Of a stretch of DNA of 7,904 bases, positions 317 through 7,904 are shown piece by piece (the first letter of the stretch is position 1; every line of letters starts with the position of its first letter). This stretch comes from a virus. Lineage: Duplodnaviria; Heunggongvirae; Uroviricota; Caudoviricetes. Below the pieces are notes generated by a model. That model did no database searches. It saw only the letters and a program-made list of their open reading frames with translations, and was not told the DNA's origin. The stretch lies in the IMG/VR virus record IMGVR_UViG_2531839127_000025. One strand, given 5' to 3'. Position numbers and translations under genes: made by a program.

Positions 317-595
317 AAAAGCCGGTATTTGTTACCTGATCATCCACGATCATTGAAACGTGAACATTATTAGGTGTGCTCTCGTAATCCGTTCTTATTC
401 TTTCTGCGATACTGATAAAACGTGAAAGTTTAGGCAGTGCAATTGGGTAAACGACTTTAGCCAGTCCATTATCATTAGATCCACCGGTTCCAAATACTTC
501 TATTGCACCATCTGACCAGCGTACCCATGCACCATTGGCATTAGCTCCTCGCTGAATGACATATCTGGCTTCTCCCAAACCAACGTTTATGAAAA
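240..595 (-). CDS. Alternative (silent-orientation) tail-fibre C-terminal variable segment; start-less, would be fused to the constant fibre N-terminus after inversion
   Basis: Minus-strand frame is open from the crossover site down to a stop at 237-239 (ORF track 240..623; the ATGs at 623-618 lie outside the invertible segment and are probably not used). The frame runs straight through the 26-bp crossover site, encoding ...FINVGLGEA.... Gly/Asn/Ser/Trp-rich composition is typical of fibre tips. Assignment is by architecture, not by recognised homology. Confidence 0.45.
570..595. other. Serine-invertase crossover site (gix/cix/hix-like 26-bp imperfect palindrome)
   Basis: TTCTCCCAAACC-AA-CGTTTATGAAAA: two 12-bp half sites in inverted orientation around a central AA dinucleotide, following the TTnTCnnAAACC..GGTTTnnGAnAA pattern of hix/gix/cix sites. 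Lies 55 bp upstream of the invertase ATG and inside the fibre-segment reading frame. Confidence 0.7.
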
Positions 596-649
596 TGCAG
601 AAATAACGAGCAAATGGCATCATTCCTGCTTTTGTCAGAGGGATCCACT

Positions 650-1243
650 ATGCTTATTGGCTATGTACGCGTGTCAACAAATGACCAGAACACGGAATTG
701 CAGCGTAACGCGCTGGAGTGTGCAGGATGTGAGCTGATTTTTGAGGACAAAATCAGCGGCACGAAGTCCGACAGGCCGGGACTGAAAAAACTGCTCAGGA
801 CATTATCGGAGGGGGATACACTGGTAGTCTGGAAGCTGGACCGGCTGGGGCGTAGTATGCGGCATCTGGTCATTCTGGTTGAGGAGCTGCGCGAACGCGG
901 CATTAATTTTCGCAGCCTGACGGATGCCATTGATACCAGCACGCCGATGGGGCGTTTTTTCTTTCATGTGATGGGTGCCCTGGCTGAAATGGAGCGAGAA
1001 CTCATTGTCGAGCGGACACGCGCAGGACTGGAAGCGGCCAGAGCCAAAGGTCGTATTGGTGGCAGACGACAGAAACTCACCGCGAGTGAGTGGGAGCAGG
1101 CCGGGCGTTTGCTGGCTGCAGGGGAGCCACGTCAACGCGTGGCACTGATTTTTGATATTGGTCTGTCCACGCTCTATAAAAAATTTCCCGCCTCAGTGAC
1201 AAAAAATAAATTGTGTCATCCCTTAGCCAACCGGGACAAATAG
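650..1243 (+). CDS. Serine-recombinase DNA invertase (Pin/Gin/Cin/Hin family)
   Basis: Protein from ATG 650 begins MLIGYVRVSTNDQNTELQRNAL..., with the family's catalytic-serine N-terminus, the GDTLVVWKLDRLGRS and MGRFFFHVMGALAEMERELI(V)ERT blocks, and a C-terminal HTH region (RVALIFDIGLSTLYKK). AGAGGGA Shine-Dalgarno 9-15 nt upstream. The in-frame ATG at 614 has no SD and adds a non-conserved leader. Confidence 0.92.
   Translation: MLIGYVRVSTNDQNTELQRNALECAGCELIFEDKISGTKSDRPGLKKLLRTLSEGDTLVVWKLDRLGRSMRHLVILVEELRERGINFRSLTDAIDTSTPMGRFFFHVMGALAEMERELIVERTRAGLEAARAKGRIGGRRQKLTASEWEQAGRLLAAGEPRQRVALIFDIGLSTLYKKFPASVTKNKLCHPLANRDK
1212..1240 (+). promoter_or_regulatory. Candidate late-promoter activator box (imperfect dyad TTGTGTC ... 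GACAAA) upstream of FI
   Basis: Imperfect inverted repeat roughly 60-90 bp upstream of the FI start, overlapping the 3' end of the invertase ORF. P2 late promoters carry a TGT-N12-ACA dyad for Ogr; the spacing here does not match that consensus, so this is tentative. Confidence 0.2.
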
Positions 1244-1302
1244 CCTGACATCTCCGGCACAACTGAAAATACCACTCACCCATTAACCACGGAGTTAAAC
1301 GG

Positions 1303-2493
1303 ATGAGTGACTATCATCACGGCGTGCAGGTGCTGGAGATTAACGACGGCCCCCGCGTCATTTCCACCGTATCCACTGCCATTGTCGGCATGGTCTGCAC
1401 GGCCAGCGATGCGGATGCGGAAACCTTCCCCCTCAATAAACCTGTGCTGATTACCAATGTGCAGAGCGCAATTGCAAAGGCCGGTAAAAAAGGCACGCTG
1501 GCGGCATCGTTGCAGGCCATCGCTGACCAGTCAAAACCGGTCACCGTTGTCGTGCGCGTGGAAGACGGCACCGGCGACGACGAAGAAACGAAACTCGCGC
1601 AGACCGTTTCCAATATCATCGGCACCACCGACGAAAACGGTCAGTACACCGGGCTAAAAGCCCTGCTGGCGGCGGAGTCGGTAACCGGTGTTAAACCGCG
1701 TATTCTCGGTGTGCCGGGGCTGGATACCAAAGAGGTGGCTGTTGCACTGGCATCCGTCTGTCAGAAGCTGCGCGCTTTCGGGTATATCAGCGCATGGGGC
1801 TGTAAAACCATTTCCGAGGTGAAAGCCTACCGCCAGAATTTCAGCCAGCGTGAGCTGATGGTCATCTGGCCGGATTTCCTCGCATGGGATACGGTCACCA
1901 GTACCACCGCCACCGCGTATGCCACCGCCCGTGCGCTGGGTCTGCGTGCCAAAATCGACCAGGAGCAGGGCTGGCATAAAACGCTGTCCAACGTCGGGGT
2001 GAACGGTGTTACCGGCATCAGCGCCTCTGTATTCTGGGATTTGCAGGAGTCCGGCACCGATGCTGACCTGCTTAACGAGTCAGGCGTCACAACGCTGATT
2101 CGCCGTGACGGTTTCCGCTTCTGGGGTAACCGTACCTGCTCTGATGACCCGCTGTTCCTCTTTGAAAACTACCCCCGCACCGCGCAGGTGCTGGCCGACA
2201 CGATGGCTGAGGCGCATATGTGGGCGGTGGACAAGCCTGTCACCGCAACGCTGATTCGCGACATCGTTGACGGCATCAATGCCAAATTCCGTGAGCTGAA
2301 AACAAACGGCTATATCGTGGATGCGACCTGCTGGTTCAGCGAAGAATCCAACGATGCGGAAACCCTCAAGGCCGGAAAACTGTATATCGACTACGACTAT
2401 ACACCGGTACCTCCTCTTGAAAACCTGACCCTGCGCCAGCGTATTACCGATAAATACCTGGCAAATCTGGTCACCTCGGTTAACAGCAATTAA
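1303..2493 (+). CDS. FI: Contractile tail sheath protein (P2 gpFI-like)
   Basis: 396-aa ORF with GGAG Shine-Dalgarno 8 nt upstream. The MSDYHHGVQVLEINDG... N-terminus and overall sequence match my recollection of P2 FI. Followed immediately by the tube gene. Confidence 0.93.
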   Translation: MSDYHHGVQVLEINDGPRVISTVSTAIVGMVCTASDADAETFPLNKPVLITNVQSAIAKAGKKGTLAASLQAIADQSKPVTVVVRVEDGTGDDEETKLAQTVSNIIGTTDENGQYTGLKALLAAESVTGVKPRILGVPGLDTKEVAVALASVCQKLRAFGYISAWGCKTISEVKAYRQNFSQRELMVIWPDFLAWDTVTSTTATAYATARALGLRAKIDQEQGWHKTLSNVGVNGVTGISASVFWDLQESGTDADLLNESGVTTLIRRDGFRFWGNRTCSDDPLFLFENYPRTAQVLADTMAEAHMWAVDKPVTATLIRDIVDGINAKFRELKTNGYIVDATCWFSEESNDAETLKAGKLYIDYDYTPVPPLENLTLRQRITDKYLANLVTSVNSN

Positions 2494-2505
2494 GGAGCCT
2501 GACCG

Positions 2506-3024
2506 ATGGCAATGCCGCGCAAACTCAAGTTAATGAACGTCTTTCTGAACGGCTACAGCTATCAGGGCGTTGCAAAGTCCGTCACGCTGCCAAAACTGAC
2601 CCGTAAGCTCGAAAACTATCGCGGTGCGGGGATGAACGGCAGCGCACCGGTAGACCTCGGCCTTGATGACGATGCGCTGTCAATGGAGTGGTCGCTCGGT
2701 GGCTTCCCGGATTCGGTTATCTGGGAGCTTTACGCCGCAACCGGTGTGGATGCCGTGCCGATTCGTTTTGCAGGCTCTTACCAGCGCGACGATACCGGCG
2801 AAACGGTGGCCGTCGAAGTGGTCATGCGTGGACGTCAGAAAGAAATCGACACCGGCGAGGGTAAACAGGGAGAAGACACCGAGTCGAAAATCTCCGTGGT
2901 CTGCACCTATTTCCGGCTGACGATGGACGGCAAGGAGCTGGTCGAAATCGACACCATCAACATGATTGAGAAGGTGAACGGCGTCGACCGGCTGGAGCAA
3001 CACCGCCGAAATATCGGCCTGTGA
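2506..3024 (+). CDS. FII: Tail tube protein (P2 gpFII-like)
   Basis: 172-aa ORF with AAGGAG Shine-Dalgarno overlapping the FI stop. Size and position (sheath-tube pair) are typical of Myoviridae; sequence resembles P2 FII. Confidence 0.92.
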   Translation: MAMPRKLKLMNVFLNGYSYQGVAKSVTLPKLTRKLENYRGAGMNGSAPVDLGLDDDALSMEWSLGGFPDSVIWELYAATGVDAVPIRFAGSYQRDDTGETVAVEVVMRGRQKEIDTGEGKQGEDTESKISVVCTYFRLTMDGKELVEIDTINMIEKVNGVDRLEQHRRNIGL

Positions 3025-3030
3025 TTTTCA

Positions 3031-3051
3031 TCCGGTCAGCCTGGCTGACCG
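3031..3051 (+). other. Perfect 9-bp stem / 3-nt loop hairpin between FII and E
   Basis: CCGGTCAGC-CTG-GCTGACCGG lies between the FII stop (3022-3024) and the E Shine-Dalgarno. No U-tract follows, so it is not a classical intrinsic terminator. Confidence 0.5.
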
Positions 3052-3080
3052 GTTAACCCTGATTCAGAAGTGAGAAAACC

Positions 3081-3356
3081 ATGAACAAAGAAAATGTGAT
3101 TACCCTGGACAATCCGGTCAAGCGTGGTGAGCAGGTTATCGAACAGGTCACGCTGATGAAACCCAATGCCGGGACGCTGCGCGGTGTCAGTCTGGCTGCG
3201 GTCGCAAACTCCGAAGTCGATGCACTGATTAAGGTGCTGCCGCGCATGACGGCACCGATGCTGACCGAGCAGGAAGTCGCCGCGCTGGAACTGCCTGACC
3301 TTGTGGCGCTGGCCGGTAAGGTGGTCGGTTTTTTGTCGCCGAACTCGGTGCAGTAA
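3081..3356 (+). CDS. E: Tail assembly chaperone (P2 gpE-like), zero-frame product
   Basis: 91-aa ORF ending ...VVGFLSPNSVQ*. Sits directly upstream of the tape-measure gene, the conserved chaperone position. Contains the slippery heptamer near its 3' end. Confidence 0.9.
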   Translation: MNKENVITLDNPVKRGEQVIEQVTLMKPNAGTLRGVSLAAVANSEVDALIKVLPRMTAPMLTEQEVAALELPDLVALAGKVVGFLSPNSVQ

Positions 3357-3508
3357 CGTTCCCGAAAAATCTGTCGGTCGATGAGCTGATGGCGGATGTG
3401 GCAGTGATATTTCACTGGCCGCCATCAGAACTGTATCCCATGAGTCTGACCGAACTCATCACATGGCGCGAAAAGGCGCTCCGGCGAAGCGGAAACACGA
3501 ATGAGTAA
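3081..3508 (+). CDS. E': Tail assembly chaperone frameshift product (P2 gpE+E'-like), made by a programmed -1 shift at 3329-3335
   Basis: Slippery heptamer T TTT TTG at 3329-3335 in X XXY YYZ phasing relative to the E frame. The -1 frame is open from there to a TAA at 3506-3508, encoding ...VAELGAVTFPKNLSVDELMADVAVIFHWPPSELYPMSLTELITWREKALRRSGNTNE, and overlaps the T start codon at 3501. Confidence 0.8.
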
Positions 3509-5948
3509 CAATGTAAAATTACAGGTATTGCTCAGGGCTGTTGACCAGGCATCCCGCCCGTTTAAATCCATCCGCACAGCGAGCAAATCGCTGTCGGGGG
3601 ATATCCGGGAAACACAAAAATCACTGCGCGAGCTGAACGGTCACGCATCCCGTATTGAGGGATTTCGCAAGACCAGCGCACAGCTCGCCGGGACTGGTCA
3701 TGCACTTGAAAAGGCACGGCAGGAGGCCGAAGCCCTTGCCACACAGTTTAAAAACACTGAACGTCCGACCCGTGCTCAGGCGAAAGTGCTGGAATCCGCA
3801 AAGCGTGCGGCGGAGGACTTACAGGCGAAATATAACCGCCTGACGGATTCCGTTAAGCGCCAGCAGCGGGAACTGGCCGCTGTGGGAATTAATACCCGCA
3901 ATCTTGCACATGATGAGCAGGGACTGAAAAACCGTATCAGTGAAACCACCGCACAGCTTAACCGGCAGCGTGACGCGCTGGCGCGTGTCAGTGCGCAACA
4001 GGCAAAACTTAATGCAGTAAAACAGCGTTATCAGGCCGGAAAGGAACTGGCCGGAAATATGGCCTCGGTGGGCGCTGCCGGTGTGGGGATTGCGGCGGCG
4101 GGAACGATGGCCGGAGTTAAGTTGCTGATGCCCGGTTATGAGTTTGCGCAGAAAAACTCAGAATTGCAGGCCGTGCTCGGAGTGGCAAAAGACTCCGCCG
4201 AAATGACCGCACTACGCAAACAGGCGCGCCAGCTCGGCGACAATACCGCCGCCTCGGCGGATGATGCGGCCGGTGCACAGATAATCATCGCGAAAGCGGG
4301 TGGGGATGTTGATGCCATTCAGGCGGCAACGCCGGTCACGCTGAATATGGCGCTGGCGAACCGCCGCACGATGGAAGAAAACGCCGCCCTGCTGATGGGG
4401 ATGAAATCCGCCTTTCAGCTTTCAAACGATAAGGTCGCTCATATCGGGGATGTTCTCTCCATGACGATGAACAAAACCGCCGCCGATTTTGACGGCATGA
4501 GTGATGCGCTGACCTATGCCGCACCTGTGGCAAAAAATGCCGGTGTCAGCATTGAAGAAACCGCCGCAATGGTCGGGGCGCTGCATGATGCAAAAATCAC
4601 AGGCTCAATGGCGGGGACGGGAAGCCGTGCCGTGTTAAGCCGCCTGCAGGCACCGACGGGAAAAGCATGGGATGCACTCAAAGAGCTTGGAGTGAAAACC
4701 TCAGACAGCAAAGGAAACACCCGGCCAATATTTACCATTCTGAAAGAAATGCAGGCCAGTTTTGAGAAAAACCGGCTCGGTACTGCCCAGCAGGCTGAAT
4801 ACATGAAAACTATTTTCGGGGAGGAGGCCAGCTCAGCCGCCGCCGTGCTGATGACTGCCGCCTCAACCGGAAAGCTGGACAAACTGACCGCTGCGTTTAA
4901 AGCCTCAGACGGGAAGACCGCCGAGCTGGTAAATATCATGCAGGATAACCTCGGCGGTGACTTTAAGGAGTTTCAGTCCGCTTATGAGGCGGTGGGGACA
5001 GACCTGTTTGACCAGCAGGAAGGCGCACTGCGTAAGCTCACTCAGACGGCCACAAAGTATGTGTTAAAACTCGACGGCTGGATCCAGAAAAACAAATCAC
5101 TGGCGTCAACCATCGGCCTCATTGTCGGTGGCGCGCTGGCGCTTATTGGCATCATCGGTGCCATTGGTCTTGTAGCCTGGCCGGTTATCACCGGCATCAA
5201 TGCCATTATCGCGGCAGCAGGCGCAATGGGGGCAATCTTCATGACGGTTGGCAGTGCTGTTATGACGGCCATCGGGGCGATTAGCTGGCCGGTTGTGGCC
5301 GTGGTGGCCGCCATTGTCTCCGGGGCGTTGCTTATCCGTAAATACTGGGAGCCTGTCAGCGCATTCTTTGGCGGTGTGGTTGAAGGGCTGAAAACGGCAT
5401 TTGCGCCGGTGGGGGAACTTTTCACGCCACTTAAGCCGGTGTTTGACTGGCTGGGCGAAAAGTTACAGGCCGCGTGGCAGTGGTTTACAAACCTGATTGC
5501 CCCGGTTAAAGCCACACAGGACACCATGAACCGTTGCCGTGACACGGGCGTCATGTTCGGGCAGGCGCTGGCTGACGCGCTGATGCTGCCGCTTAATGCG
5601 TTCAACAAACTGCGCAGCGGTATTGACTGGGTACTGGAAAAACTCGGTGTTATCAACAAAGAGTCAGACACACTTGACCAGACCGCCGCAAGGACTCATG
5701 CCGCCACGTATGGCACCGGTGGTTACATTCCGGCGACCAGCTCTTATGCAGGCTATCAGGCTTATCAGCCGGTCACGGCACCGGCTGGCCGCTCTTATGT
5801 GGACCAGAGTAAAAACGAATATCACATCAGCCTGACGGGTGGTACTGCGCCGGGGACACAGCTTGACCGCCAGTTACAGGATGCGCTCGAAAAATACGAG
5901 CGGGATAAACGTGCGCGCGCCCGTGCCAGCATGATGCATGACGGTTAA
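3501..5948 (+). CDS. T: Tail tape measure protein (P2 gpT-like)
   Basis: 815-aa ORF directly after the E/E' chaperone pair. N-terminal region is rich in charged, coiled-coil-like residues; a long Gly/Ala/Ile hydrophobic segment is encoded around 5098-5340. Confidence 0.93.
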   Translation: MSNNVKLQVLLRAVDQASRPFKSIRTASKSLSGDIRETQKSLRELNGHASRIEGFRKTSAQLAGTGHALEKARQEAEALATQFKNTERPTRAQAKVLESAKRAAEDLQAKYNRLTDSVKRQQRELAAVGINTRNLAHDEQGLKNRISETTAQLNRQRDALARVSAQQAKLNAVKQRYQAGKELAGNMASVGAAGVGIAAAGTMAGVKLLMPGYEFAQKNSELQAVLGVAKDSAEMTALRKQARQLGDNTAASADDAAGAQIIIAKAGGDVDAIQAATPVTLNMALANRRTMEENAALLMGMKSAFQLSNDKVAHIGDVLSMTMNKTAADFDGMSDALTYAAPVAKNAGVSIEETAAMVGALHDAKITGSMAGTGSRAVLSRLQAPTGKAWDALKELGVKTSDSKGNTRPIFTILKEMQASFEKNRLGTAQQAEYMKTIFGEEASSAAAVLMTAASTGKLDKLTAAFKASDGKTAELVNIMQDNLGGDFKEFQSAYEAVGTDLFDQQEGALRKLTQTATKYVLKLDGWIQKNKSLASTIGLIVGGALALIGIIGAIGLVAWPVITGINAIIAAAGAMGAIFMTVGSAVMTAIGAISWPVVAVVAAIVSGALLIRKYWEPVSAFFGGVVEGLKTAFAPVGELFTPLKPVFDWLGEKLQAAWQWFTNLIAPVKATQDTMNRCRDTGVMFGQALADALMLPLNAFNKLRSGIDWVLEKLGVINKESDTLDQTAARTHAATYGTGGYIPATSSYAGYQAYQPVTAPAGRSYVDQSKNEYHISLTGGTAPGTQLDRQLQDALEKYERDKRARARASMMHDG

Positions 5949-5962
5949 GGAGGTGACGAAAA

Positions 5963-6442
5963 ATGATGCTCGCGTTAGGTATGTTTGTTTTTATGCGCCA
6001 GACGCTGCCACACCAGACCATGCAGCGTGAATCAGATTATCGCTGGCCGTCAAATTCCCGTATCGGCAAACGGGATGCCTTTCAGTTTCTCGGTGTGGGT
6101 GAGGAAAACATCACGCTTGCCGGTGTGCTTTATCCTGAACTGACCGGCGGAAAGCTGACGATGACCACGCTCAGACTGATGGCAGAGGAAGGCCGGGCGT
6201 GGCCGTTGCTGGATGGCACCGGCATGATTTACGGCATGTATGTCATCAGCAGGGTGAGTGAAACAGGGAGTATTTTCTTTGCAGACGGCACACCCCGGAA
6301 AATTGATTTTACGCTGTCGCTCACCCGCGTTGATGAATCACTGGCCGCGCTTTATGGCGATATCGGTAAACAGGCGGAATCGCTCATCGGTAAGGCTTGC
6401 AGTATGGCGACTAAATTCACGGGTATGACGGGGGCGGGATAA
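5963..6442 (+). CDS. U: Tail protein U (P2 gpU-like)
   Basis: 159-aa ORF with AAGGAGGTG Shine-Dalgarno upstream. Its stop overlaps the D start (TAATG). Conserved position after the tape measure. Confidence 0.88.
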   Translation: MMLALGMFVFMRQTLPHQTMQRESDYRWPSNSRIGKRDAFQFLGVGEENITLAGVLYPELTGGKLTMTTLRLMAEEGRAWPLLDGTGMIYGMYVISRVSETGSIFFADGTPRKIDFTLSLTRVDESLAALYGDIGKQAESLIGKACSMATKFTGMTGAG

Positions 6443-7605
6443 TGCTGGATGCACTGACATTTGATGCAGGCAGTACGCTGACGCCGGATTACATGCTGAT
6501 GCTCGACAGCAGGGATATTACCGGCAATATCAGCGACCGTCTGATGAGTATGACCCTGACGGATAACCGGGGTTTTGAGGCTGACCAGCTTGATATTGAA
6601 CTGAACGATGCCGACGGGCAGGTCGGGCTGCCGGTTCGTGGCGCTGTCCTGACGGTGTATATCGGCTGGAAAGGTTTTGCCCTGGTATGCAAAGGGAAAT
6701 TCACCGTTGATGAGGTAGAACACCGGGGCGCGCCGGATGTGGTCACCATCCGCGCCCGGAGTGCAGATTTTCGCGGGACGCTCAATTCCCGCCGTGAAGG
6801 CTCCTGGCATGACACCACGCTCGGTGCGATTGTTGAGGCGATAGCCTCCCGTAACAGGCTGGAAGCCAGTGTCGCGCCGTCACTGGCCGGAATTAAAATC
6901 CCGCACATCGACCAGTCGCAGGAGTCTGATGCAAAATTCCTGACCCGCCTTGCTGAACGCAACGGCGGTGAGGTGTCGGTAAAAATGGGAAAACTGTTGT
7001 TTCTCAAAGCGGGGCAGGGGGTGACGGCCAGCGGTAAAAAAATCCCGCAGGTCACCATCACCCGCAGCGACGGCGACCGTCATCATTTTGCGATTGCTGA
7101 TCGTGGAGCCTACACCGGCGTAACGGCAAAGTGGTTACACACCAAAGACCCGAAGCCGCAAAAGCAGAAGGTAAAACTGAAACGCAAAAAGAAAGAGAAA
7201 CACCTGCGCGCACTGGAGCACCCGAAAGCAAAACCGGTCACGCAGAAGAAAGCGCCAAAAGTACCGGAAGCGCGCGAAGGTGAATACATGGCCGGTGAAG
7301 CTGACAACGTTTTTGCCCTGACCACGGTATATGCCACAAAAGCGCAGGCTATGCGCGCCGCTCAGGCGAAGTGGGACAAACTGCAACGGGGCGTTGCGGA
7401 GTTCTCCATCAGCCTGGCTACTGGTCGGGCAGATATTTACACGGAAACGCCGGTCAAAGTGTCAGGCTTTAAGCGCGTCATAGACGAGCAGGACTGGACA
7501 ATCACTAAGGTGACACATTTTCTGAATAATAGCGGCTTCACGACGTCCCTGGAGCTTGAGGTCAGGCTTTCTGATGTGGAGTACGAAACAGAAGATGATG
7601 AGTGA
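6442..7605 (+). CDS. D: Tail protein D (P2 gpD-like)
   Basis: 387-aa ORF translationally coupled to U. Contains a Lys-rich basic segment (KDPKPQKQKVKLKRKKKEKHLRALEHPKAKP...) encoded at about 7140-7270. Last gene of the F operon in P2 gene order. Confidence 0.88.
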   Translation: MLDALTFDAGSTLTPDYMLMLDSRDITGNISDRLMSMTLTDNRGFEADQLDIELNDADGQVGLPVRGAVLTVYIGWKGFALVCKGKFTVDEVEHRGAPDVVTIRARSADFRGTLNSRREGSWHDTTLGAIVEAIASRNRLEASVAPSLAGIKIPHIDQSQESDAKFLTRLAERNGGEVSVKMGKLLFLKAGQGVTASGKKIPQVTITRSDGDRHHFAIADRGAYTGVTAKWLHTKDPKPQKQKVKLKRKKKEKHLRALEHPKAKPVTQKKAPKVPEAREGEYMAGEADNVFALTTVYATKAQAMRAAQAKWDKLQRGVAEFSISLATGRADIYTETPVKVSGFKRVIDEQDWTITKVTHFLNNSGFTTSLELEVRLSDVEYETEDDE

Positions 7606-7685: not shown

Positions 7686-7904
7686 ATGTTTCATTGTCCT
7701 TTATGCCAGCATGCCGCACATGCGCGTACAAGCCGCTATATCACTGACACGACAAAAGAGCGTTATCACCAGTGTCAGAACGTGAATTGCAGCGCCACGT
7801 TCATCACTTATGAGTCGGTACAGCGATATATCGTGAAGCCGGGAGAAGTCCACGCCGTAAGGCCGCACCCGTTGCCATCAGGGCAGCAAATTATGTGGAT
7901 GTAA
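7686..7904 (+). CDS. ogr: Late-gene transcriptional activator Ogr (Cys4 zinc-finger, Ogr/Delta family)
   Basis: 72-aa product MFHCPLCQHAAHARTSRYITDTTKERYHQCQNVNCSATF... with a CxxC-N22-CxxxxC zinc-finger arrangement, matching Ogr as I recall it. Follows gene D as in P2. The stop codon is the last three bases of the window. Confidence 0.9.
   Translation: MFHCPLCQHAAHARTSRYITDTTKERYHQCQNVNCSATFITYESVQRYIVKPGEVHAVRPHPLPSGQQIMWM

Follow-up and report, generated by a model that had tools for sequence, protein, structure and literature searches.

The promoter of the F operon in this P2-like prophage very probably overlaps the 3' end of the DNA invertase gene that precedes it. The window (the whole 7,904-nucleotide stretch of DNA analysed here) covers the tail-gene region of a P2-like (Peduovirus) prophage, and along it lie an alternate tail-fibre segment, a Gin/Pin-type invertase, FI-FII-E-T-U-D and ogr, in that order (Table 1). 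We propose with high confidence that 1211-1302 is the orthologue of P2 PF, the promoter serving FI-FII-E-E'-T-U-D, that it is activated by Ogr, and that 33 bp of it, 1211-1243, are both coding sequence and promoter. Because the annotated P2 activator site and transcription start map to 1206-1234 and 1277-1279, invertase codons 188-197 and the TAG that follows them appear to be promoter DNA in current use. An earlier note on this DNA had suggested that any late promoter for FI must lie partly inside the invertase 3' coding sequence, and both the homology to PF and the transferred activator site bear this out. The note had also viewed the invertase tail as a read-through extension into former promoter DNA; codons 188-197 are indeed colinear with P2 PF, but the promoter they extend into is most simply read as a current one and not a former one.

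Table 1. Features of the window and the basis for each assignment
Feature	Position	Strand	Basis
Alternate tail-fibre assembly gene and alternate tail-fibre C-terminal segment	56-623	minus	
Gin/Pin-type crossover site TTCTCCCAAACCAACGTTTATGAAAA, invertase-proximal	579-604	.	Read from sequence
Serine DNA invertase (Gin/Pin/Cin/Hin family), 197 aa	650-1243	+	Pfam, Gin structures, homologues
Invertase C-terminal tail VTKNK + LCHPLANRDK, non-conserved, outside domains	1196-1240	+	Pfam and Gin alignments end earlier
Equivalent of P2 pF Ogr/Delta activator-binding site	1206-1234	+	P2 annotation transferred
Proposed dual-use segment: PF-homologous promoter DNA and invertase codons 188-197 plus TAG	1211-1243	+	P2 homology
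Putative core activator box TGTGTCATCCCTTAGCCA, TGT-N12-CCA	1212-1229	+	P2 PF/PO form and position
Conserved ACAAATAGC block, about -42 to -34, with TAG 1241-1243 as invertase stop	1236-1244	+	Alignment
-10-like hexamer GAAAAT	1265-1270	+	GAnAAT kept in 20/20 aligned promoters
Equivalent of P2 F-operon transcription start	1277-1279	+	Annotation transfer via gap-free alignment
FI ribosome-binding site GGAG	1291-1294	+	Read from sequence; ACGGAGTTAAACGGATG conserved in all relatives
FI, tail sheath gene, first of F operon	1303-2493	+	ORF list; tail sheath in pro483, P2 annotation
F operon, FI FII E E' T U D	1303-7605	+	
ogr, late-gene activator	7686-7904	+	72/72 aa identical to P2 Ogr (7686-7901)

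The relationship to PF is close and has a sharp upstream edge. Positions 1211-1302 align with P2 17560-17651 without a gap, through to the FI ATG, and are identical at 86 of 92 positions; five of the six mismatches fall at 1216-1222, inside the N12 spacer of the activator box. The 40 nt directly upstream of 1211 match P2 at nine positions, which is a random level, and downstream the FI products are identical at 388 of 396 residues. The same edge recurs widely. In a blastn search of phage genomes with 1180-1460, the invertase-less P2, Wphi, R18C and many others are homologous from query position 32, which is 1211, and the breakpoint is at 1211 also against the invertase-less PSP3 and P24A7b. 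It is seen again in hundreds of E. coli prophages, where a spread sample of 1676 matching records has half of its rows starting at query 212, again 1211. The gap-free alignment allows coordinates to be transferred directly (window = P2 - 16349) from the P2 record NC_001895, in which the pF activator-binding site is annotated at 17555-17583, the F-operon transcription start at 17626-17628 and the FI ATG at 17652. Within the transferred activator site only 1211-1234 is homologous to P2, and 1206-1210 reads ATAAA in place of P2 GGTGG.

[quoted passage not shown] The box that we propose matches this consensus at five of six positions, and its centre is 57.5 bp upstream of the transferred start. 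Alignment with the P2 late promoters places it in the same form as PF and PO: the PF box TGTGCTGTCGATTAGCCA is centred at -57.5 and the PO box TGTGTCAGTGATAAGCCA at -55.5, both being TGT-N12-cCA, while PP uses the PO site in reverse, and in PSP3 the alignment columns of the window box are occupied by a perfect TGT-N12-ACA. The bare motif TGT-N12-MCA is not above chance in the window, with five matches against 8.5 expected, and the significance of the box comes from its gap-free homology to a mapped promoter and from its position, and not from motif statistics. The earlier note had offered instead an imperfect dyad, TTGTGTC...GACAAA, with a spacing that did not fit the consensus. Its left arm does share the TGT at 1212-1214, but the right half-site is CCA at 1227-1229 and not GACAAA, and with this half-site the misfit resolves as TGT-N12-CCA. 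The dyad itself (actually 1211-1217 and 1235-1240) has a perfect core of only 4 bp, TGTC/GACA, and was not reported by an inverted-repeat search with a seed of 6; the right arm is part of the conserved ACAAATAGC block, outside the activator box.

The box in the window departs from its relatives at the outer edge of the left arm. The full (G)GTTGT is absent, the window reading AATTGT with an A at 1210 as against an invariant G in ten of ten invertase-less promoters, and the outer GG of the P2 left arm is also gone; the box may be somewhat weaker through these two changes. Membership of the class is unaffected, because the literature consensus defines it by the TGT core only. Downstream of the box, the ACAAATAGC block is invariant in P2, Wphi, PSP3, P24A7b, pro483 and the window, and is present in most of the invertase-bearing and invertase-less promoters. 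The invertase stop codon within it falls at about -37 to -35, past the downstream end of the activator site. A sigma-70 consensus scan of 550-1500 found no promoter; GAAAAT sits 7-9 nt upstream of the transferred start, and we interpret it as the probable -10 element.

The invertase is in other respects an ordinary member of the Gin/Pin family. Its true start is ATG 650 (MLIGYVRVS...), as most of the 120 listed homologues begin with MLIGYVRVS, and the upstream start in the ORF list, ATG 614, is not one that homologues use. A Resolvase domain (PF00239, E 3e-52) spans residues 3-135 and HTH_7 (PF02796) residues 138-181, and the Gin structures 3uj3 and 4m6f align collinearly to residues 1-182 only (E 7e-95), with the YVRVST motif matching Gin. 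Serine invertases such as Gin, Pin, Cin and Hin control tail-fibre or flagellin switching. The window contains one crossover site together with the inverted alternate fibre and assembly genes, and the distal site is beyond the window. The site at 579-604 lies within the minus-strand alternate tail-fibre C-terminal segment, where ORF 240-623 renders it as FINVGLGE, and from its resemblance to the hix/gix/cix/pix consensus we take it to be of the Pin/Gin/Hin type.

The family-conserved part of the protein stops at residue 181-182, and the tail beyond it reads ...KKFPASVTKNKLCHPLANRDK, with codons 188-197 being TTG TGT CAT CCC TTA GCC AAC CGG GAC AAA (LCHPLANRDK). Among the 120 closest protein clusters, the tails after ...FPA range from 0 to ~30 residues and are mutually unrelated; Pin-like proteins finish ...FPVGDK (184 aa), and Fin has 185 aa. 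A comparison of C-termini with Gin and Pin, as the earlier note had suggested, does place the tail past the conserved domain, but the difference from Gin in length is only 4 aa (197 aa against 193 aa), and the length of the protein is not unusual. Tails of the LCHPLANRDK type are nonetheless numerous, and the protein clusters that bear them comprise more than 2000 member sequences.

The conserved appearance of this tail can be accounted for largely by the promoter. We aligned ten diverse invertase-bearing promoters with ten diverse invertase-less promoters, including IMG/VR loci, and both sets keep (G)TTGT at 1210-1214, CCAAC at 1227-1231, GA.AAATAG at 1235-1243, GA.AAT at 1265-1270 and the ribosome-binding-site region. 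The per-column entropies of the two sets are correlated (Spearman 0.58, p 4e-4, for 1211-1243, and 0.69 for 1211-1302), and TGT, C1227 and C1231 are invariant in all 20 promoters. The same bases are conserved in the invertase-less phages, where they are non-coding, and the L-C...N-x-D-K-stop pattern of the protein would then be explained mainly by promoter bases (TTGTG, CCAAC and GACAAATAG). One could suppose instead that L-C-x4-N-x-D-K is a functional invertase peptide, conserved at the protein level and with its likeness to a promoter secondary, although we consider this unlikely. Within the overlap, second codon positions have an entropy of 0.31 bits in the invertase-bearing set versus 0.88 bits in the invertase-less set, with 1215, 1218, 1221 and 1230 invariant, and Cys189 is invariant in ten of ten, both points in favor of such a peptide. 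However, the ten coding sequences are phylogenetically closer to each other, which inflates their conservation, and the extra constraint at second positions may reflect either an added coding constraint or only this closer relatedness. The nucleotides concerned are conserved in P2, Wphi, PSP3 and six other lineages that have no covering ORF, and the invariant bases include G1213 and C1231, both at third codon positions. Spacer codons also change non-synonymously within E. coli (A to T in pro483, L to S in L096), and the tail seems dispensable for the family, since most members end 0-5 residues past FPA and Gin aligns only to residue 182.

Transcription from upstream has to be considered alongside a promoter at 1211-1302. 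The gap between the invertase stop and the FI ATG at 1303 measures 59 bp (1244-1302), as had been stated previously, and the accompanying observation that it contains no terminator-like hairpin also holds: a terminator scan found none in 1244-1302 and none on the + strand in 1-1302, and RNA folds are no more stable than those of shuffled sequences (z -0.05 for 1170-1302 and z -0.50 for 1236-1302). No known RNA family was found in the window with Rfam. Three terminator-like matches, all inside the invertase coding sequence, compare with 1.4 expected, and we regard them as chance. In P2, Wphi, PSP3 and P24A7b, a GC-rich hairpin followed by TTTTCTTT lies immediately upstream of the box. In folds, this hairpin comes out strong for Wphi (-17.9 kcal/mol, z -4.2) and PSP3 (-13.4 kcal/mol, z -4.4), both with a U-run, and weak for P2 (-11.3 kcal/mol, z -1.1), and the simple terminator scan missed the P2 hairpin. 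The window has invertase coding sequence in place of this hairpin. With no terminator upstream, invertase transcripts and upstream read-through are expected to continue into FI; we infer that invertase transcripts, and possibly those of the upstream V operon, run into FI, and part of FI expression could be derived in this way.

It is a considerably larger step to propose that the box is a decayed remnant and that FI is transcribed only by read-through, started either at the promoter of the invertase or in the V (tail-fibre) operon upstream, and we consider this very improbable. The lack of any predicted + strand terminator between the window start and FI would allow it, and the loss of the G of GTTGT in the window lineage could be taken as a sign of decay. 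However, TGT, CCAAC, AAATAG and GA.AAT are kept in invertase-bearing lineages whose sequence in this region has otherwise drifted to about 60-70%, and the conserved columns match those of the invertase-less phages. In addition, an internal deletion has made a pseudogene of the invertase in phage 613R3 but has left intact the 3' end that carries the box. These patterns favor a PF orthologue in present use.

The overlap is found well beyond this phage. Over 600-1500 the window is matched best by prophages of E. coli and by phages including S164 and pro483 (95%). E. coli HB-Coli0 also matches, at 99.8%, and ~581 of 5426 complete E. coli genomes (about 11%) carry the junction, as defined by a match over at least 80% of the probe. 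Relatives in Enterobacter lignolyticus, Atlantibacter and Citrobacter, together with metagenomic ones, have invertases 79-81% and FI 82-86% identical to those of the window. Their tails read LCHTPTNSDK in Enterobacter lignolyticus (P0035), LCKTQTNPDK in Atlantibacter (P0036), LCQTQTNPDK and LCQTPPNPHG in Citrobacter (P0069 and P0116, respectively) and LCQSQTNPDK in Logan/ENA assemblies (P0015 and P0101). In every case the DNA of the relatives includes an invertible tail-fibre segment, an invertase of 197-198 aa, a 58-bp spacer and the sheath gene, and the invertase ORF crosses GTTGTG(C/T)...CCAAC...GACAAA and ends at the TAG of AAATAG. In Ca. Pantoea varia (L041), which has a different FI lineage, a 207-aa invertase crosses a perfect TGTATCAGACACCGCACA and ends 48 bp short of FI, and this is an independent overlap.

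Other arrangements without an overlap are found in the same position. The invertase stop precedes a perfect box in the Fels-2-like Fin locus (L014) and in a Dryocola prophage (L025), and in Cartapus about 48 bp separate the two. A scan of GTDB species yielded 80 invertase loci, most of which have other neighbours or lie at a contig end, and only four more precede FI. P2-family phages with an invertase before FI mostly set it hard against the F-operon promoter, and overlap is one frequent outcome; the overlap is old and common to several genera and not a local accident. The proposal that it is a recent lineage-specific accident, either a stop-loss or a module-junction deletion with no history of selection, takes some encouragement from P0005, the closest non-P2 invertase (185 aa, in a non-P2 context), which ends ...FPASTKS-TAA with its TAA aligned in frame with codon 187 AAA directly before the box, such that a single stop-loss would yield exactly this extension, but the same frame and stop in Enterobacter, Citrobacter and Atlantibacter phages with ~80% identical invertases, and the abundance of the junction in complete E. 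coli genomes, make a recent accident highly unlikely. A TAA-to-AAA change as the origin of the extension, at whatever date, is speculative.

With P2 as the guide, the PF orthologue would be expected to work as follows. Late in infection Ogr, a zinc-finger protein, would bind TGT-N12-CCA and, by contacting the alpha subunit, bring in RNA polymerase; the promoter itself would have a weak -35 region, with GAAAAT as its -10, and transcription of FI-D would begin at the equivalent of the P2 start; we infer both Ogr binding and a start near 1278 from P2 biology. The invertase frame, lacking a stop of its own, crosses the entire activator box and ends at the TAG of ACAAATAGC in the -35 region. A more elaborate proposal is that the overlap is used and not merely tolerated, either by coupling fibre switching to late transcription, with the frame kept open over the Ogr box in several genera, or through a tail that has gained a function, and this we regard as doubtful. 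There are several ways in which it might operate. Ogr bound at the box may act as a roadblock that ends full-length invertase mRNA once tail synthesis begins, or constitutive invertase transcription across the box may set the basal level of the F operon or alter Ogr access. The promoter-encoded tail may also have acquired a role in the invertase, for which the conservation of second codon positions is a hint.

We favor the simpler conclusion that the overlap is a tidy and ordinary piece of genome compaction, common in nature, in which an orthologue of a classic mapped promoter meets an ordinary invertase. In the searchable literature we found no prior description of an overlap between the invertase and PF. 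The current view of P2 late regulation is unchallenged by these observations. The F-operon promoter of very common E. coli P2-like prophages appears to sit inside DNA that is annotated only as a recombinase gene, and what looks like a conserved C-terminal motif of the recombinase is largely a shadow of promoter bases. Regulatory constraint can mimic protein conservation, and it would be a mistake to interpret tails of this sort as functional motifs. The upstream edge of the P2 variable region, which runs from the tail-fibre genes to FI, also falls within a base or two of the activator box, and variation at this module boundary offers a natural deletion series for the minimal promoter. Deletions of PF from the 5' side are reportedly active to about -69 and inactive to about -64, and the 1211 breakpoint, at about -67, would presumably fall at the functional edge of the promoter.

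Three groups of known systems resemble parts of this arrangement. P2 PF shares with the window the position of the TGT-N12-cCA box, the ACAAATAGC block, GAAAAT, the leader, the ribosome-binding site and an identical Ogr. It differs in being non-coding DNA with a terminator-like hairpin before the box, downstream of the divergent fun(Z), whereas in the window an invertase ORF precedes and covers the box, and ATAAA replaces GGTGG, including the otherwise invariant G at 1210. The invertases Gin of Mu, Pin of e14, Cin of P1 and Hin have, like that of the window, Resolvase and HTH_7 domains and an adjoining crossover site, with alternate tail-fibre and assembly genes inverted upstream. In contrast to Gin, whose 11-residue tail is its own and unrelated, the window invertase takes its last ten residues and its stop codon from the downstream promoter. 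The nearest likeness in overall layout is found in the Fels-2-like (Fin), Dryocola and Cartapus loci, with an invertible tail-fibre segment, an invertase, a late promoter and a sheath gene. There the FI ATG follows a perfect TGT-N12-ACA box at a distance of about 90 bp, and unlike in the window a gap of about 12 to 48 bp is left between the invertase stop and the box, so that gene and promoter adjoin without overlapping.

The predicted Ogr-activator box of the F-operon late promoter (PF box) overlaps the 3' end of the invertase gene, and the outer bases of its left arm depart from those of related promoters. The window's lineage has A at position 1210, where G (as in GTTGT) is invariant in all ten invertase-less PF promoters compared, and the arm reads AATGT in another invertase-bearing lineage (L168, 613R3). 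Loss of these outer promoter bases may be a cost of the coding context. The nearest invertase outside P2-like phages, from a Salmonella locus (P0005, L177), has the C-terminus ...FPAS-TKS-TAA, and its stop aligns in frame with window codon 187, AAA, directly 5' of the box. Speculatively, judging from this alignment, a single T-to-A stop-loss would yield exactly the 10-codon invertase extension.

Features of the invertase-FI region, the ogr start and two compared loci
Feature	Position	Strand	Detail
Alternate tail-fibre C-terminal ORF	240-623	minus
Presumed crossover site	579-604		TTCTCCCAAACCAACGTTTATGAAAA
Invertase start, rejected	614	+	ATG (MASFLLLSEGST...)
Invertase start	650	+	MLIGYVRVS
Terminator-like hairpin	1126-1143		GCCACGTCAACGCGTGGC, then ACTGATTTTT (tail to 1153)
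Invertase codon 187	1208-1210	+	AAA
PF box (predicted)	1212-1229		TGT-N12-CCA
ogr start, rejected	7602	+	GTG, overlapping D end
ogr start	7686	+	ATG
L175 (vB_EcoM-613R3), invertase pseudogene	894-1240
L041 (Ca. Pantoea varia), invertase-FI junction	~2040-2175		TGT-N12-ACA box TGTATCAGACACCGCACA

Other invertase-FI junctions show several arrangements. In Escherichia phage vB_EcoM-613R3 the invertase is a pseudogene with an internal deletion and a frameshift, annotated as a 104-aa 'DNA invertase', and its 3' end is intact with the PF box and the conserved AAATAG block, FI lying directly downstream. Ca. Pantoea varia is an independent case of the overlap: a perfect TGT-N12-ACA is read through by a 207-aa invertase that stops 48 bp 5' of a Fels-2/186-type sheath gene. 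The Pantoea allii (L039) and Mixta tenebrionis (L044) junctions leave 69-80 bp between the invertase and FI downstream of it, but nothing resembling TGT-N12-ACA can be seen at the distance where a box would be expected. The late activator of these phages may differ in specificity.

The ORF list places the invertase start 36 nt too far upstream, as homologues and Gin begin MLIGYVRVS; N-terminal extensions resembling 614-649 also occur in several database gene calls. The listed ogr start was likewise rejected, the real 72-aa Ogr being identical to P2 Ogr. What we take to be a Pin/Gin/Hin-type crossover site lies within the minus-strand tail-fibre ORF, where it is encoded as FINVGLGE; it is the one site within the window, the distal partner lying beyond it.

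The terminator-like hairpin within the invertase coding sequence, ~100 nt upstream of its stop, is probably a chance occurrence, because the scan found three such matches against 1.4 expected. Intrinsic terminator prediction on the + strand of 1-1302 returned none from the end of the tail-fibre assembly gene (~86) through the inverted segment and invertase to FI, and transcriptional read-through into the F operon from upstream therefore looks possible. Unlike the window, with no terminator predicted there, the invertase-less phages P2, Wphi and PSP3 carry a hairpin and U-run directly before the PF box.
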